Assembly: GCA_037443035.1 (NCBI GenBank)
Contig: JBBIPC010000005.1
Span: forward strand, 32,001 to 96,000
Reading direction: 5' to 3'
Length of the DNA stretch: 64,000 bases
From: Chthonomonadales bacterium
GTDB taxonomy: Bacteria; Armatimonadota; Chthonomonadetes; Chthonomonadales; CAJBBX01
This document shows positions 8,235-56,136 of the stretch, one piece after another. Under the pieces are notes generated by a model, which worked only from the letters and a program-made list of their open reading frames with translations, did no database searches and was not told the origin of the DNA. The stretch's first letter is position 1; each line of letters begins with the position of its first letter. The position numbers and the translations under genes were made by a program.

Positions 8235-9188
8235 ATGAACGGGCTCGAGGGCAATGGGGACAACTCCCAAGCTTCGAATGGTCCTCGTGCCAACGACGCC
8301 TGCTTCGAGCACGTCGTTGTCGTCCTCAACCCTGCCGCTGGACGGGGACGGGGTCGGCGTTGGCAGCCCGTCCTCGCGCAGGGCCTCCGCCGTGCGTTGG
8401 GTCGAGAATGCCATATCGAATTCCGCCACACAGAGCTCGATCGAGGTGCCGAGACGGTGGCACGCCAGGCGCTCCATGACGGGGCCGACCTCATTATCGC
8501 GGCAGGTGGTGACGGTACCCTCCACGGTGTTGTCAATGCTCTGGCAGGGTCGGGCGTGCCGGTTGCGCAGATCCCGCTCGGCACGGGCAATGATTTCGCA
8601 CGCGCCGTGGGTATCCCGATGGACCCAATGGAAGCGCTCGAGGTGCTGCGAACCGGTTCTGCGGTACCGGTGGATCTCGGGCTCAAGGGTGAGAGGTACT
8701 TCATCAACGCTGCCGGTTGCGGATTCGATGCAGCAGTGGCGGAACGTATCCAGCGGGGGTTCCGGAGGCTTCGGGGAACACCGGCGTATGTGGCCGCCGT
8801 CATCGCGGCGCTCCTGCGGTACCGTGCCACAGACATGACCGTTACGGTGGATGGCACGACCGTCGCACAGCGGGCGATGCTGTGCGCCGTTGCCAACGGT
8901 CGAAGCTACGGAGGAGGGATGCGTATCGCGCCTGAAGCCCGGTGGGATGATGGTTTGCTGGACATCTGTGTTGTCGCAGCGTGCACACCGCTGGAGTTTC
9001 TGCGAGCGTTCCCCATGGTCTTTCGCGGGGAACACGTGCATCACCCGAAGGTGACTCTGCTCCGCGGGGCCTCCGTCACCGTAGCCAGCGAGCCTGCAGT
9101 ATCGGTGCTCATGGATGGGGAGCTATGCGGCGCGACCCCTGTATCCTTCGGCATTGCACCCGGTGCCCTGCAGTTTGTAGTACCATAG
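8235..9188 (+). CDS. Diacylglycerol kinase family lipid kinase (YegS/Rv2252/BmrU)
   Basis: NPAAG, AGGDGT, PLGTGNDFA, GFDA, YGGG, DDGLLD and DGE motifs. Confidence 0.93.
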   Translation: MNGLEGNGDNSQASNGPRANDACFEHVVVVLNPAAGRGRGRRWQPVLAQGLRRALGRECHIEFRHTELDRGAETVARQALHDGADLIIAAGGDGTLHGVVNALAGSGVPVAQIPLGTGNDFARAVGIPMDPMEALEVLRTGSAVPVDLGLKGERYFINAAGCGFDAAVAERIQRGFRRLRGTPAYVAAVIAALLRYRATDMTVTVDGTTVAQRAMLCAVANGRSYGGGMRIAPEARWDDGLLDICVVAACTPLEFLRAFPMVFRGEHVHHPKVTLLRGASVTVASEPAVSVLMDGELCGATPVSFGIAPGALQFVVP

Positions 9189-9284
9189 GATAGTGCGGTT
9201 GCTTGGTGAAACATCGGCACCGAGGAGAATACGGGCACCGGCTGGTGACGCAGCGTTCCAGACGAGGGCAACGAGAGGCCGACG

Positions 9285-10136
9285 ATGATCTGGAAACGAT
9301 GGCTGACAGCAGTACTAGGAGTTCCGGCCCTGCTGATACTCTGCTGGTTGGGGCCGAAGGTCTTCGCACTGACTATTACGCTCGTGGCAGTCGTCGGTCT
9401 GGGTGAGCTTCTTGCAGCCTACCGAAAGGCCGGCTTTGGACCCAGTGTGCTCGTCGCGGTATCGGGTCTCCTGGGGCCCATGTTGCCCCTTCTCTTCCCG
9501 CACGGCGTCCGTGCATCGGCGATCTCTCTGTCGGGCCTTGCATCGGTCGCGTTGGCGCTCTTCCTGAGCGGGCTCATTCACGAAGTCACCGTTGCGCACC
9601 GAGATCAGAAGGTGACGACGGGCGCGAACGTCGGGCTCGGTATGCTGTGTGGCGGCTACATCGCGTTGTTCGGCGGTATAAGCATGCTTCGTGTCCCGCG
9701 AAACCTGGACGCGGTCCTGCCGGTGGCGAATGCCGACGCGGGCTTCTTCCTCGTCTTGCTCGTGCTCTGCTGTGTCTGGGCGACGGACACCGCAGCCTAC
9801 TACGTGGGGAACAGCGTCGGTTCCGTGAAGCTAGCTCCGGCACTCTCGCCCCACAAGACAGTAGAGGGAGCCGTGGGGGGATTCGCGGCTGCGGTCATCC
9901 TCGGTGCGATCCTGGGTCATCTCCTGCTGGGGCGGGCGTTGCTGGGCTGGGGCATCGGCGCCGCGGCCGGCATCGCAGGCCAGCTCGGCGACCTCTTCGA
10001 GTCGGCGCTGAAGCGGGAGCTGGGCATCAAGGATTTCGGCTCTATCGTTCCAGGTCATGGCGGTATCCTCGACCGCTTCGATAGTCTATTGTTCACTGCG
10101 CCAGCCGTCTGGATATTGGTCCTGGCGCTGGGCTGA
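9285..10136 (+). CDS. cdsA: Phosphatidate cytidylyltransferase
   Basis: WATDTAAY, SPHKTVEG, GDLFESALKRELGIKDFGSIVPGHGGILDRFDS signature. Confidence 0.95.
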   Translation: MIWKRWLTAVLGVPALLILCWLGPKVFALTITLVAVVGLGELLAAYRKAGFGPSVLVAVSGLLGPMLPLLFPHGVRASAISLSGLASVALALFLSGLIHEVTVAHRDQKVTTGANVGLGMLCGGYIALFGGISMLRVPRNLDAVLPVANADAGFFLVLLVLCCVWATDTAAYYVGNSVGSVKLAPALSPHKTVEGAVGGFAAAVILGAILGHLLLGRALLGWGIGAAAGIAGQLGDLFESALKRELGIKDFGSIVPGHGGILDRFDSLLFTAPAVWILVLALG

Positions 10137-44936: not shown

Positions 44937-45059
44937 TGCTTTGCTCCTTTCTGGAGAAAGAAGAGTACAGCACAAGCAACGCTTACGTCAACCGGGGAGG
45001 AGTTGGATGTTTCGTCCGCTAACAGCCCGACGTCTCCCTGGCAAACGGATGCTGAAGGG

Positions 45060-45461
45060 TCACCGGTCGGTCTCTCGGGCTGGTTCACGGGCTTCTTGCA
45101 CGAATCTGGCGAGGGAACCAGCCAGCTTCTCGAGTACGGCCAGCCAATCCTCGAGGTGTAGTCGTCCTGCGGGCGTGAGACGATACAAGTGCCGCGCAGG
45201 TCCTCTCCCCGTCACATCCCATTCGGAAGTCACAAAGCCGTTCGCCTCCAGCATGTGGAGCACACGGTAGAGAGCCGGCAAGTCCACGACCGAGTCGGTC
45301 AGAGCATGATCTTCCAGTGCTTTTCCGAGCTCGTAGCCGTGTGCCGCTCCCCGATCGCGCAGCAGTTGCAGCACTACCGGCTCGATGAACCGGTATAAGT
45401 TCCCCATGGCACAAGAACAGGGCTCTTCGCCACCGTGACGACGGCATCTCCTTCGCTGCAT
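45060..45461 (-). CDS. PadR family transcriptional regulator with Cys/His-rich N-terminus
   Basis: AHGYEL, LYRVLHMLEANGFV, GPARHLYRLTPAG; GGAGGT RBS before the ATG at 45461. Confidence 0.9.
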   Translation of the reverse strand: MQRRRCRRHGGEEPCSCAMGNLYRFIEPVVLQLLRDRGAAHGYELGKALEDHALTDSVVDLPALYRVLHMLEANGFVTSEWDVTGRGPARHLYRLTPAGRLHLEDWLAVLEKLAGSLARFVQEAREPARETDR

Positions 45462-45567
45462 CGGACCTGGACCTCCGGTAGTGTTGGCCGGCGGCGGCAT
45501 AGCTAGCAGTGACGCCTCCGGAAAAAAAGCAAGAAATCTCATGGAACATTGTAACATCTGCCAGCAG

Positions 45568-45588
45568 CTATATGTATAATACATGTAG
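45568..45588. promoter_or_regulatory. Palindromic operator overlapping TATAAT, probable PadR site
   Basis: CTAtATGTAT-A-ATACATgTAG; perfect core ATGTATAATACAT (45572-45584) in the divergent padR/nifX gap. Confidence 0.55.
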
Positions 45589-45631
45589 ACGCAACTAACA
45601 TTGTCTAGGCGGTGCGTAAAAGGAGCATGTC

Positions 45632-45991
45632 ATGAAGATTGCAATCACGGCCAGCGGACATGAACCGACGAGTACTGTGGACGCCCGCTTTGGGAGAGCT
45701 GCCTACTTCATGGTGTACGACACCACGACGTCCACTTGGACCGCAGTGCCGAACGCGCAGAATGCCGGCGCTCCCCAGGGAGCCGGAGTGCAGGCGGCGC
45801 AGTTGTTGGCCAGGGAGAAGGTCTCCGTCGTCATCAGCGGTCACTGTGGGCCTAAGGCGTTCCGAGCCCTTCAGGCGGGCGCCATAGAAGTGTACAGCGG
45901 TGCCAACGGAACAGTGGCGGAGGCTCTGGAGGCGTATCAGGCAGGGAAGCTGGTCCGACTGTCGGCACCAGATGTGCAAGGACATTGGTAG
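45632..45991 (+). CDS. NifB/NifX family (FeMo-cofactor-binding fold) protein
   Basis: MKIAITA, DARFGRAAYF, GAGVQAAQ, GHCGPKA. Confidence 0.9.
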   Translation: MKIAITASGHEPTSTVDARFGRAAYFMVYDTTTSTWTAVPNAQNAGAPQGAGVQAAQLLAREKVSVVISGHCGPKAFRALQAGAIEVYSGANGTVAEALEAYQAGKLVRLSAPDVQGHW

Positions 45992-46046
45992 ACGTTAGGC
46001 GCTACCGCGAGACAAGCACTCGACGAGGTAAGAGGAGGTCAAGAGA

Positions 46047-46358
46047 ATGCCAGGAATGGATGGTAAGGGTCCCGCGGGGCAGGGGCCGATGACAGGTCGA
46101 GGATTGGGTCCATGCGGGCGAGGTCTCGCCCGAGGCCGCGCTCCGGCACGGGGTCTGGGTCTCGGTCGCGGCTGGGGACGCGGGCTGGGTTTCGGACTGG
46201 GGCTCGCACTCGGGTGGTGCCGGCGCGCCGCCTGGTGGGCTGGGACACCTGCCGAGGAACGCGAGGTCTTGAAGGCGCGACAGGAAGTCCTCGAGCGGCA
46301 ACTCGAGCTGGTCAAGCAACAGCTAGCCGAAACTGAGACCAAAGAAGAGCAGGCGTAA
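46047..46358 (+). CDS. DUF5320 family protein
   Basis: MPGMDGKGPAGQGPMTGRGLGPC, Gly/Arg-rich middle, C-terminal coiled coil. Confidence 0.85.
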   Translation: MPGMDGKGPAGQGPMTGRGLGPCGRGLARGRAPARGLGLGRGWGRGLGFGLGLALGWCRRAAWWAGTPAEEREVLKARQEVLERQLELVKQQLAETETKEEQA

Positions 46359-46364
46359 GCCCGC

Positions 46365-47219
46365 GTGAGGATCGGCGTCGCCAGTGGCAAAGGCGGAACG
46401 GGGAAGACGCTCCTTGCCACGAGCCTGGCCTACATCTTGGCCGAAGCCAGGCCGGTTCAGTACGTCGACTGCGACGTCGAAGAGCCGAACGGTCGGATTT
46501 TCCTGAAGCCGCGTATCACACGGTCTGAAGACGTCCGTGTGGACGTGCCGGTCATCGATGGAGAGGCATGTGCACTCTGCGGCGAGTGCGCCGAGTTCTG
46601 CCGGTTCGGAGCACTCGCCGCAATGGGCGAGAAGGTTCTGCTTTTCCCCGAGCTCTGCCACTCCTGCGGCGGGTGTGCGCTCGTCTGCCCGAACGATGCC
46701 ATCCGAATGGGCCGTCGTAGTATCGGCAAGGTCGAGGTGGGACGATCGGGGAAGGTCGGTTTCGTCGAAGGGCGGCTGAACGTCGGCGAACCCATGGCGG
46801 CTCCGGTCATCTACGCGACGCTGGAGGCCGCGGACGAAGAGTCGCTCGTCATCGTGGATGCGCCGCCGGGTACATCCTGCGCGCTCATTGCCGCCATTCG
46901 AGCGTGTGACTACGTCTTGCTGGTCACGGAGCCCACGCCATTCGGGCTACATGACCTGAGGCTGACGCTAGAGGTCGTCGCGGCTCTGGGGCTTCGCGCA
47001 GGGGTCGTGGTCAACCGAGAAGGGCTGGGCGACTTGGAGGTGGAGCCACTCTGCGCAGAGGCAGGCGTACCCATCCTGGCCAGGATCCCGTTCGACCGGC
47101 GGATCGCGGAAGTCTATGCAACGGGAGATAGCGTCACCGATGCTCTGCCGGATGTTCGGTCCATCCTTAGCGACCTGGCCTGTGCGGTATTGCAGGAGAG
47201 CTCATGCCGGAACTCGTGA
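46365..47219 (+). CDS. MinD-like P-loop ATPase with inserted 2x[4Fe-4S] ferredoxin domain
   Basis: SGKGGTGKT, DCDVEEPN, CALCGECAEFC, CHSCGGCALVCP, DAPPGTSC. Confidence 0.92.
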   Translation: MRIGVASGKGGTGKTLLATSLAYILAEARPVQYVDCDVEEPNGRIFLKPRITRSEDVRVDVPVIDGEACALCGECAEFCRFGALAAMGEKVLLFPELCHSCGGCALVCPNDAIRMGRRSIGKVEVGRSGKVGFVEGRLNVGEPMAAPVIYATLEAADEESLVIVDAPPGTSCALIAAIRACDYVLLVTEPTPFGLHDLRLTLEVVAALGLRAGVVVNREGLGDLEVEPLCAEAGVPILARIPFDRRIAEVYATGDSVTDALPDVRSILSDLACAVLQESSCRNS

Positions 47220-48118
47220 TACTGAGCGGCAAGGGCGGCACGGGGAAGACCAGCGTCACTGCAGCATTCGCAGCGCTGGCCGTGCCTGTTACGTTGGCCG
47301 ACTGCGATGTGGATGCCGCCGACTTGCACCTCGTGGCCGCGCCCGAGACAACCGAAACGCACGAGTTCCGATCGGGCTGGCACGCCGTCCTGGACCAGAC
47401 TCTTTGTCGGCAATGTGGACGCTGCATCGCGTCGTGCCGGTTCGATGCAATCCACCGCGATAGGACGCGCTACCGCCAACTCCACATTGACCCGTTCGCC
47501 TGCGAAGGGTGCGGCGTGTGCGAGTTCGTCTGCCGCATGGGCGCCATCTCCATGGAGGAGCCGATTCGGGGATTCTGGTACCGATCCGTGACCCGGTTCG
47601 GACCCATGTTCCATGCCCAACTACACCCGGGCGCAGAAAACTCCGGGAAGCTGGTGACCCTCCTGCGGCGGAAGGCCCGGCAAGCCGCCGAGCAGCCGAA
47701 CGGTCTTCTCCTGACCGACGGGCCGCCGGGAGTGGGCTGCGCCGCCATCGCCACGCTTACGGGAGCGGATCACGTGCTCTTCGTTACGGAACCGACCGCA
47801 ACCGGGCTACACGACCTGAAACGTGCGGAGAGATTGGCCGCTGGATTTCGTATCCCCGGCAGCGTCTTGATCAATAAAGCCGATCTCAGCCCGGAGATGA
47901 GCCGCTCCATTGCAGAGTATGCCGGCCAAGCGGGTCTTCATCTCCTGGGAGAGGTGCCGTTCGATGCCGCGTTCGCCCGGGCGCAGGCCGCCGGCCAGAC
48001 GATATTGGAATACGGTCGGAGTCCTGGAGCCGACGCGCTACGAGTAGCATGGTCGCGGCTTCAGCGGCTGCTATCCGCCAAGACGCGCACACCGTTTCGA
48101 ATTGTCAAGAATATGTAG
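47204..48118 (+). CDS. Second MinD-like P-loop ATPase with ferredoxin insert
   Basis: SGKGGTGKT, DCDVDAAD, CRQCGRCIASC, CEGCGVCEFVC, ENSGKLV, DGPPGVGC. Confidence 0.92.
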   Translation: MPELVILSGKGGTGKTSVTAAFAALAVPVTLADCDVDAADLHLVAAPETTETHEFRSGWHAVLDQTLCRQCGRCIASCRFDAIHRDRTRYRQLHIDPFACEGCGVCEFVCRMGAISMEEPIRGFWYRSVTRFGPMFHAQLHPGAENSGKLVTLLRRKARQAAEQPNGLLLTDGPPGVGCAAIATLTGADHVLFVTEPTATGLHDLKRAERLAAGFRIPGSVLINKADLSPEMSRSIAEYAGQAGLHLLGEVPFDAAFARAQAAGQTILEYGRSPGADALRVAWSRLQRLLSAKTRTPFRIVKNM

Positions 48119-48134
48119 TTCGAGGGAGCCATCC

Positions 48135-48473
48135 ATGATCATCGCGATACCGCTCGTGGGAGACCGGTTGTCGGCCCACTTTGGTCATTGCGAGAAGTTC
48201 GCCCTCGTCCATGCCGATGGCGGCAAAGAGGGCGTTCTCAGGCTGGAGACTGTGACCCCACCGCCGCACGCACCGGGTGTCTTCCCGCAGTGGCTGGCCC
48301 AGTTGGGTGTACAGGTCGTGATCGTAGGCGGCATGGGCTCTCGGGCCCAGTCCCTCTTCGCCCAGCAAGGCATCACCGTCGTCACCGGTGCCCCCGTGGA
48401 CACTCCGGAAGTTCTTGCGCAAGCCTACCTGAGCGGGTGTCTCCAGAGCGGAGAGAACGTCTGCGATCACTGA
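48135..48473 (+). CDS. NifB/NifX family protein
   Basis: SAHFGHC, PPPHAPG, GGMG, C-terminal NVCDH. Confidence 0.9.
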   Translation: MIIAIPLVGDRLSAHFGHCEKFALVHADGGKEGVLRLETVTPPPHAPGVFPQWLAQLGVQVVIVGGMGSRAQSLFAQQGITVVTGAPVDTPEVLAQAYLSGCLQSGENVCDH

Positions 48474-48520
48474 CGAGGTGAGGGCCGCCGTAGCTACCCA
48501 CTAGTCCCCCCAGCCTTCTG

Positions 48521-48568
48521 GATGCCCCCTGATCTCGCAGACTCGGTCGCGATGCGAGAGGGGGCATC
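48521..48568. terminator. GC-rich stem-loop after the NifX cluster
   Basis: GATGCCCCCT-ga-TCTCGCA ... TGCGAGA-GGGGGCATC; no U tract. Confidence 0.5.
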
Positions 48569-48633
48569 GTGTCGTGTGCCGACTAACAACAGAGGAGAAA
48601 GCAGTCCCCAGAGCAGCGAATGTGTGGATATAC

Positions 48634-48651
48634 TTGTATAGATATTCACAA
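48634..48651. promoter_or_regulatory. Rex-like operator upstream of the cytochrome cluster
   Basis: TTGTATAGATATTCACAA against the Rex consensus TTGTGAA-N4-TTCACAA (12/14); extended -10 TGgTAATAT at 48656-48664. Confidence 0.55.
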
Positions 48652-48743
48652 CGTGTGGTAATATAGTGGACGATTGGTGGCGCCGGAGCAGTTGCTCCGC
48701 TTCGACGTCTGCCAGCTACATAGTGACGGAGGTAACGAGCACG

Positions 48744-49091
48744 GTGCAAGGACTATGGAAGCCTGCCATCAGCGTCGTCGTCCTGGTTCTCGGTGCGACA
48801 GCACTCGCCATGCCTGCGTACAAGGCGGTGTTGCACTCCACCTACAAAGTGAAACCGGGCAGCGTCATCGCCAAGGCCGACTGCGCACTCTGCCACGCGA
48901 CGAAGTCCAACTTCAAGAAGCTGAACGTGTTTGGCGCCGACCTTGACAAGGCGCTCAAAGTGGCGAAGTCGAAGGCAATGACCGCGGAGATCCTCAAGAA
49001 AGTCGAGACACTTGACTCCGACAAGGACGGGGTGAAAAACGTGGATGAAATACAGAAGGACACCCTGCCGGGAGATCCGAAGAGCAAGTAG
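48744..49091 (+). CDS. Small exported monoheme c-type cytochrome
   Basis: GGAGGT RBS, signal peptide, CALCH, LNVFGAD, acidic DSDKDGVKNVDEI Ca-binding-like motif. Confidence 0.8.
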   Translation: MQGLWKPAISVVVLVLGATALAMPAYKAVLHSTYKVKPGSVIAKADCALCHATKSNFKKLNVFGADLDKALKVAKSKAMTAEILKKVETLDSDKDGVKNVDEIQKDTLPGDPKSK

Positions 49092-49203
49092 CGAGCGGTA
49101 GCGGATGCCGTGCGAACCCTGACTACCTCGGCTTCCGCCGCCTACAGGCTGGAAGACCCAACACCCATGCGCTCGTTGCACGAGCGCAAGAAAGGACAAG
49201 AGC

Positions 49204-50406
49204 ATGCGGAGAACGCATAAGGCAATCGTCGCAGTCGCCATTCTGTGTGGCTTCGTGGCCGCCGCGTCCAGCGCCTTGGCAGTACCCGCTTTCGGGCGCA
49301 AGACCGGCCTAGACTGCACTTCGTGCCACTTCGGTGGTTCGAATCGACTCACGAGAATGGGCCTGGATTTCCTCGTTCGCGGACATCGTATGAAGGATGA
49401 TCAGGGCATTGCCAAGGGTGACAAGAGCCTGAACGTTCTGGACTACATGTCGTTCTCGTCCAAGGTTCGCTACACCGCGAACAACTCGTCACCGTACACG
49501 GCTTTCGACGTGGAGTCCTTCTCTATCTACACGGGCGGACCTCTTTCCGGGGGTTTCAGCTACTTCGTGGAGTACTACCTCCATGAGCGGGGCAAGGCGG
49601 CGTCCTCGACTGGTGGTCAGGTGGACACAGCTACGAGGTCGAAGCTTGCGGACGCGTATCTCCAATGGAACAGCGCCCCTCAGGGAGATGCGTATTACTA
49701 CGTTCGAGCGGGCCAGATCTACCCGTACGCCGTCTACGTCAATGGTTCTGGCGGTCGCCTGAGTATCAGTCGCCCGACAGTGATCGATGGTGATCTCGGG
49801 GGTGGCAACTTGTATACACCACGCGACCGTGCCTATGGCCTGTCGGCCGGCTACGCGAACGGTAATGGGTACCGTATGGAAGCAGGGATCGTCAACAGCG
49901 GCGGAACCAACAAGCGCGCCAACCTCGCGGAGCAGAATACTTTCAAGGATCTTTTCCTCACCGTGGAGAAGGACCTGACGTCTGAGCTAACGTTCGGACT
50001 GTACGGCTACAACGGACGCATCAACATCCCGGCGGCGGGAAGCATCCCCCAGTGGGAGGATCGCTTCACTCGGTATGGCGTCTTCAGCCGTTACGAGACC
50101 GAGAGTCTCGCCTTGAGCGCCGCGTACTTCGGAGGCCAGAACCAGGTCTACGGCGGCGGACACAGGAATCCTGACGGGTACTATCTCGAAGCGGGATACA
50201 ACGTCCAGCCAACCTTGACGGGATTCGCACGCTACGACCACGTCTACAACGACCTGGGCGCCTCATCGCGGCGAACGGATGTCACGTTCGGCGTGTCCCA
50301 GAGGCTGACGGATGTGGGGCGACTGGTGCTGCAGTTCAGCACTACGACAGTACCAGGATCACCATACAAGCGACAGTTGCAGGCGGAGCTGAACTGGCTC
50401 TTCTAG
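49204..50406 (+). CDS. Cyc2-like fused monoheme cytochrome / outer-membrane beta-barrel
   Basis: Signal peptide, then AVPAFGRKTGLDCTSCH...LTRMGLDFLVRG, followed by amphipathic beta strands and a terminal Phe (LNWLF). Confidence 0.8.
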   Translation: MRRTHKAIVAVAILCGFVAAASSALAVPAFGRKTGLDCTSCHFGGSNRLTRMGLDFLVRGHRMKDDQGIAKGDKSLNVLDYMSFSSKVRYTANNSSPYTAFDVESFSIYTGGPLSGGFSYFVEYYLHERGKAASSTGGQVDTATRSKLADAYLQWNSAPQGDAYYYVRAGQIYPYAVYVNGSGGRLSISRPTVIDGDLGGGNLYTPRDRAYGLSAGYANGNGYRMEAGIVNSGGTNKRANLAEQNTFKDLFLTVEKDLTSELTFGLYGYNGRINIPAAGSIPQWEDRFTRYGVFSRYETESLALSAAYFGGQNQVYGGGHRNPDGYYLEAGYNVQPTLTGFARYDHVYNDLGASSRRTDVTFGVSQRLTDVGRLVLQFSTTTVPGSPYKRQLQAELNWLF

Positions 50407-50424
50407 GCACCGTACCGTTGTCTC

Positions 50425-50464
50425 GCTGCGGTGCTCCTCCCACGCCTAGGTGGAGCACCGCAGC
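50425..50464. other. Strong intergenic stem-loop
   Basis: GCTGCGGTGCTCC-N14-GGAGCACCGCAGC, perfect 13-bp stem after the porin stop. Confidence 0.7.
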
Positions 50465-50647
50465 CTCATACGCAACAAGGGAAAGCACGATACAACGTCG
50501 CGAGACGATAGCTGCCAACCTCTGTGGCTACGACCTCCGTTGCCAGGCTGGGGACGTCGGATGCTTGGTGACCCGGGCGCGCCACCGAATGGCCCGTAGG
50601 CCCTGGGTACTGGCCACATCCATCGGCCAGCGGACCACGATCTGAGG

Positions 50648-52141
50648 ATGAAGCTCCCACGTTCGTTCTACAACGTCACGACCTTCGTGGGAGCCCTCTT
50701 TGCGTTCCTGTTCCTCCTCGTTACGTTGTTCCTCTTCGCGGTGGAGCTGACCGCTCCGCAGTCCCATCCGTACATGGGGCTCGTCGCGTTCATCGTCCTT
50801 CCGACTCTTTTCGTCCTGAGTCTGCTTGTCGCGCTCTTCGGCATCTTCCGGACGTGGCGCCGGCTCCGAAAGCCGACAGCCACTCCCATCCCGCCGTTCC
50901 ATTTCGATCTCAGTGTCCCGGCCCAACGTAACGCCGCTCTGCTCGTCATGGGAGGATCGGGGTTCTTCCTGCTGTTCGCCTCGTTCACGAGCTACCAAGC
51001 TTACGAGTACACCGATTCCGTCGAGTTCTGCGGAAGAGCCTGTCACGCGGTGATGAAGCCCGAATACACCGCCTACAAGGCTTCTCCCCACGCGAGGGTG
51101 GCCTGCGTGGCATGTCACATCGGCCCTGGAGCGACCTGGTTCGTCAAGTCCAAACTGAGTGGTACGTACCAGGTCTACTCCACACTCTTCCACAAGTACC
51201 ACAAGCCCATCGAGACACCCATCGCCAACCTGCGTCCTGCTCGAGAGACCTGCGAGCAGTGCCACTGGCCCCAGCATTTCTACTCGGCCAAACTTCGCAC
51301 GCAGGCCTACTTCCTGTCCGACGAGAAGAACACGCGCTCCAGCACGACGCTGCTGATGAAGATCGGCGGGGGTGATGTCAATCACGGAGCGGCGGCTGGC
51401 ATCCATTTCCACATGTACCTGAACGCCACCATCTCCTACGTAGCCCTGGACAAGAAGCGTCTGGTGATCCCCTACGTGGAGGTCCGGTACCCTGACGGTA
51501 CTTTCAGATCGTATCGAAGCACAGAGAATCCCGTACCTGAAGACAAGCTGCGTAAGTCACCTCGCTACGTCGTAGACTGCATCGAGTGTCACAATCGACC
51601 GACCCACCGGTTCCGCCATCCGGCGCAGACCGTGAACCTGGCCATGTCTTTGAACAAGATCAAGCCGGACCTGCCAGAGATCAAGAAGGTAGCCGTGGAA
51701 GCCCTGGAACAGCCATACAAGACGGAGCCGGAGGCCCTCCGAGGCATTCGCAAGGCTGTACTGGACGCTTTCCGAGCGAACCATCCGGACGTGGCGGCCT
51801 CGCGTGGTGCCGACATCGAAGCGGCCATCGAGGAGCTGCAACGTATCTACCGCACGAATTACTTTCCGGAGATGAAGGTAAGCTGGAAGGAGTTCCCGGA
51901 TCATATCGGCCATCTGTACTCTCCGGGCTGCTTCCGATGCCATGACGACAAGCATGTCAGCCCGGACGGCAAGGTCTTGTCACGCGCGTGCAATCAGTGC
52001 CACACGATACTGGCACAGACGGACGGCCAGGGCAAGATGTCCGAATCGCTCGAGGGGCTGGCCTTCAAGCACCCAGGCGATGTGGGAGATGCCTGGATGC
52101 AGATGAACTGCACAGACTGCCACGCGCAACCAGCACAATAG
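50648..52141 (+). CDS. NapC/NirT-family heptaheme inner-membrane cytochrome c (ImcH-like)
   Basis: Three N-terminal TM helices; CGRACH (CX3CH), CVACH, CEQCH, CIECH, CFRCH, CNQCH, CTDCH. Confidence 0.88.
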   Translation: MKLPRSFYNVTTFVGALFAFLFLLVTLFLFAVELTAPQSHPYMGLVAFIVLPTLFVLSLLVALFGIFRTWRRLRKPTATPIPPFHFDLSVPAQRNAALLVMGGSGFFLLFASFTSYQAYEYTDSVEFCGRACHAVMKPEYTAYKASPHARVACVACHIGPGATWFVKSKLSGTYQVYSTLFHKYHKPIETPIANLRPARETCEQCHWPQHFYSAKLRTQAYFLSDEKNTRSSTTLLMKIGGGDVNHGAAAGIHFHMYLNATISYVALDKKRLVIPYVEVRYPDGTFRSYRSTENPVPEDKLRKSPRYVVDCIECHNRPTHRFRHPAQTVNLAMSLNKIKPDLPEIKKVAVEALEQPYKTEPEALRGIRKAVLDAFRANHPDVAASRGADIEAAIEELQRIYRTNYFPEMKVSWKEFPDHIGHLYSPGCFRCHDDKHVSPDGKVLSRACNQCHTILAQTDGQGKMSESLEGLAFKHPGDVGDAWMQMNCTDCHAQPAQ

Positions 52142-52276
52142 CCACAGAGCGGGAGATCCAGCTCCCGCCACAAACAGGTGGACTGCGCAGTCGCGAAGCC
52201 GGACGAGGTCCCGGCCGCGACCTTGTAAGGCAATGTCCGCACGTGGATGCGGATTCACCGCGGGAGGTGAACAAGT

Positions 52277-52786
52277 ATGCCTGCACAGTCTACGAGGCCG
52301 CTGGACGACGAGAGGTCTGACGTTTCCGCAGCGGCCACGCAAGCCGGTCGCCGAAGCTTTCTCGAGTGGCTGCTGGCCACCTTGCTAGTCGTGACCGGCG
52401 CTACCTTTGTTCGTCCTGTGCTGTCCTATCTCAGTCCCCGAAAGAGCGGCAAGGGTGCCCACGTTCTGCTCGGTACTGACGGCCGCTCCATTCCGTATGC
52501 ACGGCTAGCCACGGAGCCGACACTCGTCGGCATGGGCGTGGACGGGGAGCCTACGATTGTCGTGAGGTACGCCGGAGAAACAAGGGCATTCTCGGCGGTC
52601 TGCACACATCTGGGCTGCCTCGTCAAGTGGGAGGCGGCCAAGGCCGAGTTCATCTGCCCGTGCCACAACGGCCACTTCGACGCGAACGGTGTCAACGTTG
52701 CCGGGCCACCACCCAAACCGCTGAAACGCTTCAAGGTCTACGCAACGGACAGGGGCGAAATCGGTCTCGAGGAGGTATCGGCATGA
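52277..52786 (+). CDS. Rieske [2Fe-2S] subunit of a cytochrome bc complex
   Basis: Tat motif GRRSFL plus TM helix; CTHLGC and CPCHNGHF; GPPPKPL. Confidence 0.93.
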   Translation: MPAQSTRPLDDERSDVSAAATQAGRRSFLEWLLATLLVVTGATFVRPVLSYLSPRKSGKGAHVLLGTDGRSIPYARLATEPTLVGMGVDGEPTIVVRYAGETRAFSAVCTHLGCLVKWEAAKAEFICPCHNGHFDANGVNVAGPPPKPLKRFKVYATDRGEIGLEEVSA

Positions 52787-53847
52787 AGCGCCTCGTTACC
52801 TCGGTGTGGCGATGGATAGATACACGCCTGAAGCTCAGCGATATCTTGCGGGCTACCCTAACCGAGTACATGGTGCCGGCGAACCTCAACTTCTGGCACA
52901 CACTGGGCTTCGTTCTGGTGACCTGCTTCGTCATCCAGGTGGTCACCGGCATGCTCCTCCTGATGTACTACGTTCCGGACACCAGCCGAGCTTTCGAATC
53001 CGTCCAATACCTCAGCAATGAGGTGCCTTACGGGTGGCTCGTGCGGAACATCCACGCGATGACATCCCACCTGTTCGTGCTGGCGCTATTCCTCCATATC
53101 GCCTCCACCGTCTGGATGCGGGCCTACCGCAATCCGCGGGAGCTCCAGTGGCTTTCGGGGATGATCCTCCTGGGTCTAGTGCTAGCTGCCGGTCTGTCTG
53201 GCTACCTACTGCCGTGGAGCCAGCTCTCGTACTGGGCGACAACCGTGGCGACCAACGCCGCAGGGAGCATTCCTGTCGTTGGTGATGATCTCGTGCTCTG
53301 GATTCGCGGAACGCCGAAGGTGACGCAGTTCACTCTCGGACGATTCTTCGCGGCGCACGTCTCCATCATTCCGTTCAGCATTCTGGTCCTGATCGGCATC
53401 CACCTGCTGTTCCTTCGACTGACAGGTATCTCTGTCCCAGGGGGTGAGGAGAGGGGTCCGGTCCGCAGAGTGCCATTCTTCCCTCACATGGTGGTGAAGG
53501 AGATCGGTTCGGTCTTCGGATTCCTGATCCTTCTGAATGTCCTGATCTTCTACTTCCCGCAGATCAACTTCCCCGCGGACGCCCTCATTCCCGCTAATCC
53601 GCTCGAAACTCCCGCTCATATCAAACCGCACTGGTACTTCCTGGCTAACTACCAGTTCCTGAAGCTCGTGCCCAGCGAGTTTCTCGGTGTTATCCTCCAA
53701 GTCGTTGGAGGGATTATCCTTTTCTTCCTGCCATTCCTCGACACAGGTAAGCGACGGTCCCCGCTCTACAACCGGCTGTTCTACGCGGTGGTCGGTCTCA
53801 GCATCCTCGGTTACATCGGCCTGATGGTCTGGGGCTACTACTCATGA
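52783..53847 (+). CDS. Cytochrome b (b6-like region fused to subunit IV)
   Basis: GGAGGT RBS and ATGA overlap; four heme His (RNIH...LH; AAH...IH), GYLLPW.QLSYW, TPAHIKPHWYF. Confidence 0.93.
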   Translation: MKRLVTSVWRWIDTRLKLSDILRATLTEYMVPANLNFWHTLGFVLVTCFVIQVVTGMLLLMYYVPDTSRAFESVQYLSNEVPYGWLVRNIHAMTSHLFVLALFLHIASTVWMRAYRNPRELQWLSGMILLGLVLAAGLSGYLLPWSQLSYWATTVATNAAGSIPVVGDDLVLWIRGTPKVTQFTLGRFFAAHVSIIPFSILVLIGIHLLFLRLTGISVPGGEERGPVRRVPFFPHMVVKEIGSVFGFLILLNVLIFYFPQINFPADALIPANPLETPAHIKPHWYFLANYQFLKLVPSEFLGVILQVVGGIILFFLPFLDTGKRRSPLYNRLFYAVVGLSILGYIGLMVWGYYS

Positions 53848-54665
53848 GGAGGTACGGGTTGATGATGCGCATTCTCGTTACAGCCCTGGCACTATCGGTG
53901 GTCGGGGGGGCGGCCCGGGGGCAGAACTCGTGTCTCGCCTGCCACCGACAGCAAGAGGGTGATCGTGGCGGTCCAGCCCATGACTGGCCGACAAGCGTGC
54001 ACTTCGTGAACGGGATTGGTTGCCAGGATTGCCACGGCGGCGACGCCCGTTCCGACGACCCTCAGATCGCCATGAACCCCAAGAACGGCTTCGTCGGTCG
54101 GCCAGCTCCAAGGGACGTTCCCAACTTCTGTGGCAAGTGTCACGAAGCTGTTCGCGACAACTACCTGCAGAGCGCTCATGCAGCCATGCTCCAGGCTGAC
54201 CCGGCAGCCGCGCCCAACTGCGTCACGTGCCACACCGCCCATAAACAGCAGAAGGTTACGCTGGACCTCATCAACGAGCGAACGTGCGGCCGGTGTCACG
54301 ATTACGCACGGGCAGCGAGGCTCAAGGAAGCCATGCGCGGTATCGAGAACGATGTGCAAGCGGTGACTGCTCGCGAACGTCACGTGTTCCTCCACGGCAT
54401 CGCCACAGACGACGAACAGAAGGCTATCTTTGCCGTCCGTAATCAGGCACACAGGCTTACCCACGTCCTGGAGATCCAGAGAATCCTCGGTGCATTGGAC
54501 AAGGTACGGCCCGACCTGGATCGCGTAGAGGCGCGGATTTCGGTCAAGGAGAAGGTCCTGGAGGATAGACGGCGAGAAGGGAACGCTCTCCTCGTGCTCT
54601 TCTTCATCGGCATGATCGTCGCCTACGCTACGCACAAGAGGCTCATGCATACCGCCAGCGGTTGA
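53844..54665 (+). CDS. Pentaheme cytochrome c with C-terminal membrane anchor
   Basis: Signal peptide; CLACH, CQDCH, CGKCH, CVTCH, CGRCH; helical stalk and C-terminal TM; ATGA overlap with cytochrome b. Confidence 0.88.
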   Translation: MRRYGLMMRILVTALALSVVGGAARGQNSCLACHRQQEGDRGGPAHDWPTSVHFVNGIGCQDCHGGDARSDDPQIAMNPKNGFVGRPAPRDVPNFCGKCHEAVRDNYLQSAHAAMLQADPAAAPNCVTCHTAHKQQKVTLDLINERTCGRCHDYARAARLKEAMRGIENDVQAVTARERHVFLHGIATDDEQKAIFAVRNQAHRLTHVLEIQRILGALDKVRPDLDRVEARISVKEKVLEDRRREGNALLVLFFIGMIVAYATHKRLMHTASG

Positions 54666-54674
54666 GGCACGAGT

Positions 54675-54701
54675 TGGACTGGGGGCGTACGGATTCGAAC
54701 C
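54675..54701 (-). other. tRNA 3'-end-like fragment (T-loop to acceptor strand)
   Basis: Minus strand reads GGTTCGAATCCGTACGCCCCCAGTCCA; the 5' side of the T-stem and the rest of the tRNA are missing. Confidence 0.45.
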
Positions 54702-54706
54702 AACTC

Positions 54707-54736
54707 TTGACAGGCACTCCTTAGCCGTGCTATATA
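54707..54736 (+). promoter_or_regulatory. Sigma70-type promoter
   Basis: TTGACA-N18-TATATA with TG at the extended -10 position. Confidence 0.5.
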
Positions 54737-54765
54737 TTTGTCACGTTCGTGGCAAGGGGAGTGCG

Positions 54766-55467
54766 GTGCATTCGATACGCGTGACATTGGCGGCAGCCCC
54801 GCTGGTGGCGCTTCTGCTATGGCCGTCGGCCGCCGCGGCCGATGTGCGTCACTTCCCCTACACCTACTCCTGGCACCAGCCGTACCGCAACGAGAAGGAG
54901 ATCGCTTATCACCTGCGGTATCTAGATCGAGACAACACCTTCACCCATCGCTTCGAGTTCGAGTACGGCCTCACAGATCACCTGTCCGTAGCACCCTACG
55001 TCGTCTTCACTGGGAATACCGGCGGCGGCTGGACATACGACGCAACGTTGCTAGAGACACGCTGGAACTTCGGAAGTCGCAAGGACGACGTCTGGTTGCC
55101 CGCAGTCTACATGGAGTGGAAGAAGGCCAGATCCGAGCCCTGGGAAGTGGAGGGCAAAATCATCATCACGCGCTATGGCACAGGCGAATCGGATCTCTCG
55201 CTCAACTACATTGTCGAGCAACTCCTGGAGACGGGAGCCAGTGCGCATCATGCGCTGTCTCTGGCGTACAGCAGAACCATCGGTGGCGGCATGCGGGCGG
55301 GATTCGAGTGGATTCAGGGTCTCACGTCTCGCAGGATCAATGCGGGGCCTGTGTTCTCAAGCTACGTGGGACCAGTGTGGCTCACGGGAGGGCTGGCTCT
55401 GCCGCTGAACGGCGTTTCTGGCAATCGCCCCGAGTTCCGACTCATCGCCTCCCACCACTGGTTCTGA
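54766..55467 (+). CDS. Putative small outer-membrane beta-barrel (DUF6662-like)
   Basis: Signal peptide, RHFPYTY, EFEYGLTDHL, E.KII, terminal HHWF. Confidence 0.65.
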   Translation: MHSIRVTLAAAPLVALLLWPSAAAADVRHFPYTYSWHQPYRNEKEIAYHLRYLDRDNTFTHRFEFEYGLTDHLSVAPYVVFTGNTGGGWTYDATLLETRWNFGSRKDDVWLPAVYMEWKKARSEPWEVEGKIIITRYGTGESDLSLNYIVEQLLETGASAHHALSLAYSRTIGGGMRAGFEWIQGLTSRRINAGPVFSSYVGPVWLTGGLALPLNGVSGNRPEFRLIASHHWF

Positions 55468-55497
55468 GCTGTCGGCAGGCACACGGTCAACGATGCC

Positions 55498-56136
55498 ATG
55501 ACAGCAGTGGCGTCCGCTACAGGAGACGTACGGGCCGCTCGGCGGCTGGCCCTGTTCACCGTCGCCTGGAACCTGACCGAGGCGTTCGTGGCCTTGTTGA
55601 GCGGAATACTGGCTGGCAGCATCGCATTGGTCGGATTTGGCGCCGACTCCATAGTGGAGAGTCTATCCGGTGCGGTGATGCTCTGGCGTTTCGGGGCGAC
55701 CGACCACGACGGCCGTCGAGAGAAGCTGGCCTTACGGTTGGTGGGAGCCACCTTGCTCATCCTCGCTGTGTACGTCGCAGGCGACGCAGCTCAGAGCCTC
55801 GCTCGCCGTGAGCCACCCGAGAAGAGCATCCCTGGCATCATTCTCGCGATGCTATCGCTGGCCGTAATGCCTCTGCTCGCACGTGCCAAGCGAAGAGTGG
55901 CCGGCAGGCTACAGAGCGCCTCGTTACATGCCGACTCGCGGCAGACCGACATCTGCGCCGTGCTATCCGCCATCTTGCTTGTTGGACTGGCCCTAAATGC
56001 CATAGCTGGGTGGTGGTGGGCCGATCCTATGGCTGCGATCGCTATGACGCCGCTCATCGCGCGTGAGGGAGTGAATGCCGTGCGCGGAGAAGCGTGCGGC
56101 TGTGCCGTGCAACATCCTACAGCGAAGTCAGACTGA
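55498..56136 (+). CDS. Cation diffusion facilitator-like metal transporter (TM domain only)
   Basis: WNLTE, SIALVGFGADS, SASLHADS, WWWADP; C-terminal CGC. Confidence 0.85.
   Translation: MTAVASATGDVRAARRLALFTVAWNLTEAFVALLSGILAGSIALVGFGADSIVESLSGAVMLWRFGATDHDGRREKLALRLVGATLLILAVYVAGDAAQSLARREPPEKSIPGIILAMLSLAVMPLLARAKRRVAGRLQSASLHADSRQTDICAVLSAILLVGLALNAIAGWWWADPMAAIAMTPLIAREGVNAVRGEACGCAVQHPTAKSD

Follow-up and report, generated by a model that had tools for sequence, protein, structure and literature searches.

Genes of the cluster

The window analyzed here, a stretch of 64,000 nucleotides from an Armatimonadota genome (Chthonomonadales bacterium, GCA_037443035.1), belongs to contig C5 of an assembly of 3.76 Mb, rated 100% complete, and carries six genes, g1 to g6, for cytochromes, a porin and a Rieske protein. 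An initial annotation, made from the sequence alone, had described them as a candidate complete extracellular electron-transfer conduit in which a module of electron uptake stands beside one of electron export. Its family assignments are retained (g2, a Cyc2-like porin; g3, an ImcH; g4 to g6, a Rieske/cytochrome b/pentaheme block): the parts belong to known families, and their combination is rare, unconserved and not found described. All six open reading frames (ORFs) lie co-oriented on the plus strand at the positions first given. Likewise confirmed were the 14 c-type heme motifs (one CxxCH each in g1 and g2, six CxxCH and one CxxxCH in g3, five in g6), four b-heme histidines (H91, H105, H192 and H207 of g5, which align with heme ligands of solved cytochromes b), a Rieske cluster with both boxes and an RRxFL anchor (PF00355), and ATGA overlaps at 52783-52786 and 53844-53847. 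The other gaps within the cluster measure 112, 241 and 135 bp. Position 48634, formerly taken as the start of the cluster, falls in a Rex-like palindrome and is no gene start; g1 most likely starts at the GTG codon at 48744, behind a GGAGG site. Subcellular locations of the six products are predictions from hydropathy and fold.

The porin gene, g2 (49204..50406, plus strand), encodes a 400-aa fused monoheme cytochrome-porin with a signal peptide and a single CxxCH at residue 38, as judged by hydropathy. An AlphaFold2 model from a 38-sequence alignment (mean pLDDT 87) has 16 strands and a small helical N-terminal heme domain, in agreement with the heme-bearing barrel proposed initially, and Foldseek put OmpF/PorB/OmpK36-type porins at the top of its matches, which also included OprP and OprO (E ~1e-9 to 1e-11). 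No match was found in Pfam or NCBIfam, the Atlas returned only unnamed or Porin_O_P clusters, and a PDB sequence search gave chance antibody matches only, which were set aside. A representative-sequence search yielded 124 proteins at E<=1e-30 and 4374 at 0.001, without assigning g2 to any of the Cyc2 clusters. Upstream of the heme, AVPAFGRKT departs from the Cyc2 motif AXPXFAR[QK][TY] by one mismatch (G for A); in the g2 family the strict form occurs in 1/38 members and a relaxed form in 36/38. Downstream of CxxCH, where Cyc2 has PXL, g2 has NRL, and PxL was found in 2/38 family members. By its modeled architecture, then, g2 is Cyc2-like, with its clade unplaced. The closest named homologs are from Armatimonadota, in line with the phylum guessed at the outset, and homologs occur in Geothrix as well.

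The next gene, g3 (50648..52141, plus strand), encodes a heptaheme quinol oxidase of the ImcH family, 497 aa long, with every published sequence feature of that family: three N-terminal transmembrane helices, a length of 495-519 aa, a CX3CH next to the membrane part followed by six CX2CH, and similarity to NapC/NirT, here including a match to TIGR03153 below the cut-off. The definition is that of PMC6295460. Three coupled genes follow, also on the plus strand. A CbcV-like Rieske [2Fe-2S] protein is encoded by g4 (52277..52786), and g5 (52783..53847) encodes a CbcW-like, unsplit cytochrome b of 354 aa with seven predicted helices, the only PF00033 match of the host genome. The product of g6 (53844..54665), CbcX-like, is an exported pentaheme cytochrome c with a C-terminal transmembrane anchor at residues 245-264; proteins of G. 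hydrogenophilus and G. pickeringii align to 87-88% of it at 38-39% identity. The b-heme histidines and Rieske ligands of a Q-cycle complex are thus present in g4 and g5. The Qo motif of g5 is PHWY, outside the canonical P-E/D/V-W-Y type; it is shared with one other genome of the phylum, G011, and not with another, G066. In loci L115-L146, many of which contain the Rieske-cytochrome b-pentaheme triplet, the 26 Qo motifs found were PEWY (22) or PAWY (4). The main text of PMC4122944 has no occurrence of PHWY; it does describe other non-acidic Qo variants, so that this complex may yet run a Q cycle.

The first gene, g1 (48744..49091, plus strand), encodes an exported 115-aa monoheme cytochrome c, with an acidic DSDxDG tail after the heme domain, that is likely a periplasmic electron carrier. 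It matches the N-terminal part of NF041762 below the cut-off, and its structural model is helical, with no Foldseek match in the PDB. Aligning the g1 family with the g2 family in hhalign gave 96.2%, the signal peptide being part of the aligned region, and when a profile of the mature g2 heme domain was run against all six-frame ORFs of the host, the four g1 paralogs ranked second to fifth (E 0.002-0.08). Seven free, exported monoheme proteins of ~70 aa, found in 4/80 metagenome loci (L173:5989-6201, L173:8020-8232, L174:51-269, L178:6078-6293, L178:8074-8280, L191:1418-2027), also match the Cyc2 heme domain and adjoin ImcH, Rieske or multiheme genes; the three of these searched against Pfam fell into no family. 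Their profile weakly matches the first heme region of PDB 6QVM (E 0.0015), which is OmhA, a reductase of the cell surface; according to PMC9250108 and PMC12203936, no homolog of the N-terminal extension of OmhA was known. The new element here is the apparent homology of g1 and the free ~70-aa proteins with the Cyc2 heme domain, together with their repeated occurrence next to ImcH, CbcL, MtrAB and the porin; the three likely, if not provenly, form one family of minimal cytochromes that are free, tailed or fused to a barrel.

A scan of the g1 and g2 families for a His or Met able to serve as sixth heme ligand found none conserved. In both, a proline is frequent at the likely mature N-terminus, and the position just ahead of it is a small-residue site. 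By analogy with cytochrome f, in which the N-terminal amine is a heme ligand, that amine could be the sixth ligand in g1 and g2. For Cyc2-type heme, two axial ligands are reported by electron paramagnetic resonance and one in models (PMC13692758, PMC13741234).

Neighborhoods, insert and host genome

The phylum survey covered 401 Armatimonadota genomes, the host counted. Porin-profile matches at 1e-8 occur in 141 genomes, the g1 family in 119, cytochrome b in 95 (close matches only in G011 and G066) and ImcH in 14. Neighbors were counted within the fetched flanks of 33 porin loci (25/33 at least 10 kb long) and in the best 80 of 264 pentaheme-related metagenome loci (24/80 at least 10 kb), stretches reached by two tools being counted once. 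Among the porin loci, two had ImcH, one had Rieske/cytochrome b and three had g1, in each case directly ahead of the porin, as also in L209. Ten of the pentaheme loci combined ImcH, Rieske and cytochrome b, and none had a full-length porin. The full set occurred in neither group (0/33 and 0/80), and a conserved six-gene operon, which the initial annotation had proposed to look for, was therefore rejected. Because the set is absent from these loci and its sub-blocks are scattered, what the locus shows is a recombining modular kit in one of its arrangements and not a fixed six-subunit machine.

The kit takes several forms. In G011 the order is g1, USP, porin, ferredoxin, membrane protein, g1, CbcL-like, ImcH, Rieske, cytochrome b and pentaheme; the last four products are 60-79% identical to those of the window, and the porin is of a distant type. 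Neighborhoods of ImcH were fetched for 11/13 other ImcH genomes. In these 11 genomes, g1 lay within ~4 kb of ImcH in five, a CbcL-like gene in four, and an MtrB-like barrel with an 8-heme lipoprotein in two (L196, L197), where the pair takes the porin's place; three of the genomes with misses offered only short contigs or contig ends. At L156 and L175, the arrangement agrees with ImcH, Rieske/cytochrome b and MtrAB in one cluster. A triplet of MtrA-like cytochrome, barrel and 8-heme lipoprotein genes is found in Armatimonadota at L196, L197, L233-L236 and in the host, adjoining g1, CbcL-like genes and, in L196 and L197, ImcH; PMC6295460 reported no mtrAB next to imcH. Elsewhere (L049, L109, L212, L213), Cyc2-like porins stand ~4 kb or less from other Rieske/cytochrome b genes, with no ImcH in the fetched stretch. 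One further locus (L202:974-5600) has a 21-heme cytochrome, then a Rieske gene, then a cytochrome b fused to 15 heme motifs. At 12 of 17 fetched g1 loci, which were taken from the best-scoring matches and not randomly, CbcL-like, MtrAB-like or 8-heme lipoprotein genes were nearby.

In the window, the cluster sits in an insert of ~11.1 kb (44976..56127, no strand assigned). In a genome of the same genus (G001, 96% complete), the sugar-isomerase-like and phosphomutase-like genes that flank the insert are only 12 bp apart, and searches of that genome for the porin, ImcH and cytochrome b found none. Gain of the insert is more likely than loss, since it splits a tight gene pair. End repeats were sought at its boundaries and tRNAs within the 64-kb window, and neither was found; GC and GC3 of the insert are similar to those of the flanks, giving it a host-like composition. 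Besides the cluster, the insert holds an upstream ORP/NifB-NifX-type Fe-S ATPase block, g7 and a transporter gene. The ORP-type block (45632-48473) consists of two NifB/NifX-domain proteins, a DUF5320 protein and two 4Fe-4S MinD-like ATPases; similar ATPases precede the Rieske-cytochrome b-pentaheme triplet in L122. A small protein resembling an outer-membrane barrel is encoded by g7 (54727..55467, plus strand), which had no match in Pfam or NCBIfam; its look-alikes in the Atlas, CopB- and UCP029691-type clusters, are a lead only, and a homolog lies near porin locus L028. The final gene encodes a CDF-family cation efflux protein (55498..56136, plus strand; PF01545).

Elsewhere, the host genome has CcmC and CcmF for c-type heme maturation, futalosine-type menaquinone genes and ACIII adjoined by an A-type heme-copper oxidase, so that heme maturation, quinone type and terminal oxidase, all points raised for checking at the outset, are accounted for. 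It also has a CbcL-like gene with a g1 paralog directly ahead, genes for a DmsE/MtrA-like cytochrome, a barrel and an 8-heme lipoprotein (G000:C3:220888-225165), and two HAO-like octaheme genes. A candidate bd oxidase was not counted, the PF01654 match being partial and the ORF carrying CxxCH. Among carbon-fixation routes, the search was aimed at RuBisCO alone and found none. Judged by gene content, the host carries a Geobacter-like electron-export kit, in which ImcH would have a second exit besides g2.

Regulation of the cluster may involve oxygen. The palindrome at 48634..48651 (no strand assigned) overlaps a sigma70-like promoter match (48639-48667) and fits a Rex consensus at 12/14 positions, and a Rex-type gene is present in the host genome (PF06971). 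Together these are consistent with anoxic induction of the cluster. The genome has seven Rex-like sites compared to 1-5 in five shuffles, barely above the shuffles and with no overall enrichment, and sigma70-like promoters are as numerous as the shuffle mean, which puts the promoter scan at chance level. Two further Rex-like sites lie upstream of an HAO-like octaheme gene (C14:93812) and shortly before the ACIII/oxidase block (C3:60255). Within the cluster, RNAfold of the 241-bp gap after g2 predicts a long, GC-rich hairpin without a U-tract (50424..50464, plus strand, ends approximate), possibly a terminator or an mRNA-stability element; a terminator scan did not call it. Because this hairpin separates g2 from g3, a single transcript is not to be assumed.

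Function and direction of electron flow

The most likely function, to which we give an even chance, is anaerobic oxidation of menaquinol with electrons flowing outward to acceptors outside the cell; we infer every electron-transfer step from the observed anatomy and neighborhoods. Under low oxygen, possibly via Rex, the cluster would be expressed. Menaquinol would be oxidized by ImcH and by the Cbc3-type complex, in the second case probably with charge separation, and g1 and its three paralogs would then be the periplasmic electron carriers, in the role that PpcA has in Geobacter. From there, electrons could leave either by the single heme of g2, to soluble acceptors with access to the barrel, such as chelated Fe(III) and humic quinones, or by the MtrAB-like/octaheme-lipoprotein conduit encoded elsewhere, to solids. 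Outward flow is favored because ImcH, with an Eapp of -196 mV (PMC13591261), would pass electrons downhill to a Cyc2-type heme, for which measured potentials range from -130 to +560 mV and which is predicted on the periplasmic side (PMC13692758), because the survey of PMC6295460 found ImcH homologs in Fe(III) reducers alone, and because RuBisCO was not found.

The same genes could instead serve an inward path, in which g2 would oxidize Fe(II) or reduced humics and g1 would deliver electrons to the A-type oxidase beside ACIII, part of them being driven uphill, in the manner of iron oxidizers, to the quinone pool via Rieske/cytochrome b or ImcH. The Cyc2 architecture of g2 in AlphaFold2 and Foldseek and the presence of that oxidase agree with this, and bc1 runs uphill in Acidithiobacillus (PMC13741234). 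All Cyc2 proteins with assayed activity in the literature surveyed are Fe(II) oxidases (10.1101/228056, PMC13692758). We nevertheless consider the inward path unlikely. Without RuBisCO, reverse flow would be of little use; ImcH is a low-potential protein reported only from reducers (PMC6295460, PMC13591261); the strict Cyc2 motif and PXL are each found in two or fewer of the 38 g2 family members; and the function of Cluster 3 Cyc2, already known from an Armatimonadota genome (PMC9671151), is termed most uncertain (10.1101/228056). The paradox of uptake beside export, as first put forward, is softened: the Cyc2 architecture stands, and its meaning as a sign of uptake is weaker, given a porin without PXL, not placed in an iron-oxidizer clade and with homologs in Geothrix. 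Cyc2-like genes are, moreover, already reported from organisms related to Fe(III) reducers (PMC6344600), and a hidden Markov model called a Cyc2, alongside ImcH, in G. sulfurreducens (10.1101/2022.03.26.485925).

Several observations, the assayed Fe(II) oxidases among them, weigh against outward flow through this cluster. Co-occurrence at the 33 porin loci is low, as counted above, and the hairpin predicted by RNAfold between g2 and g3 is strong. The only similar cluster, in G011, has one in-frame premature stop each in ImcH and the porin (L012:3123-4637, 8631-9971), from decay or assembly error. In G066, the Rieske-cytochrome b-pentaheme genes, ImcH and g1/CbcL are at three separate sites, and the closest porin homolog in a relative (L010, 55%) stands without any partner nearby. 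Moreover, 5/17 fetched g1 loci lack CbcL-like, MtrAB-like and 8-heme lipoprotein neighbors, and g1 is common in the phylum while ImcH is rare. Much of this would be expected if g1-g2 and g3-g6 were separate units sharing the insert by chance, with ImcH and Cbc3 feeding the MtrAB-like conduit, octaheme enzymes or the oxidase, and with the porin serving a purpose unconnected with theirs, for example the sensing or uptake of metals alongside g7 and the CDF protein. Low synteny, the hairpin, the solitary state of most close porin homologs and the ten pentaheme loci with ImcH, Rieske and cytochrome b and no full-length porin all point that way, and the locus would then be an ordinary cluster of known parts. 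Porin and ImcH do, however, co-occur at four distinct loci whose porins are of different subtypes (the window and L012, L021 and L035, less than 5 kb apart in the latter three), and g1 accompanies both, so that we hold a chance assembly to be fairly unlikely.

Outward flow, if it occurs here, would have a wider bearing. Cyc2 is a widely used marker of iron oxidation, and this locus links one divergent homolog to ImcH, CbcL and Cbc3. We tentatively suggest, while thinking it rather doubtful, that the Cyc2 heme domain belongs to an unrecognized minimal-cytochrome family, whose free members (g1 and the ~70-aa proteins) would serve ImcH and CbcL, and that the g2 clade is an outward, barrel-fused Fe(III)/humic reductase wired to ImcH. 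If so, some Cyc2 matches used as iron-oxidation markers would mark electron export. As small soluble proteins, g1 and the 70-aa cytochromes are suited to testing direction, potential and the sixth heme ligand. The survey further reveals that Geobacter-like quinol oxidases and porin-cytochrome conduits occur, patchily, in Armatimonadota, a phylum credited in the literature surveyed only with Cyc2, MtoAB-like and unassigned multiheme genes (PMC9671151).

Comparison with known systems

No description of Cyc2, ImcH and Rieske in one cluster was found in a literature search whose coverage excluded most subscription journals and supplements. The label of a complete conduit in one cluster is too strong, given the absence of synteny as a set, the g2/g3 hairpin, the separate MtrAB-like conduit and CbcL-like gene, and a Rieske block that corresponds to a named Geobacter complex, Cbc3. 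Whether the whole matches a characterized nitrite-, sulfur- or selenite-respiration module (NrfH/NrfA-type or Ext/Cbc6-type) was also considered. The NapC/NirT-like match of g3, the score of g5 on ExtP in NCBIfam (both below cut-off) and the two HAO-like octaheme genes elsewhere in the genome could be read in this way, as could the Geobacter cluster extHIJKLMNOPQS, which includes Cbc6 and likewise unites a porin, multiheme cytochromes, Rieske and cytochrome b (PMC5877670). In that cluster, however, ExtI has no heme motif, ExtP is a split cytochrome b of 23 kDa, a rhodanese is present and ImcH is not (PMC5877670), whereas the window has a heme-bearing porin and an unsplit cytochrome b, and Pfam and NCBIfam identify no catalytic subunit, rhodanese or molybdoenzyme in the insert. 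Such a module is therefore very improbable.

In Geobacter Cbc3 (CbcVWX, GSU1648-1650), an FeS subunit, a cytochrome b and a 5-heme cytochrome c are adjacent, as in g4-g6 (PMC7894505, 10.1101/2021.04.15.440034), and its role is stated as unknown (PMC13591261). The likeness is one of gene make-up, the Geobacter matches of g6 not being assigned to CbcX by locus, and the PHWY of the window differs from the PEWY and PAWY of L115-L146. With Cyc2/Cyt572, g2 shares the signal peptide, one CxxCH near the mature N-terminus and a 16-stranded OprP-like barrel (10.1101/228056); it differs in its AVPAFGRKT, in the absence of PXL, and in adjoining quinol oxidases of iron reducers rather than an oxidase. With G. 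sulfurreducens ImcH (GSU3259), from a family whose 2018 survey table does not include Armatimonadota (PMC6295460), g3 shares a length of 497 aa, three N-terminal helices, CX3CH followed by six CX2CH and a NapC/NirT core; the difference lies in the neighbors of g3, a Rieske complex and a Cyc2-like porin.

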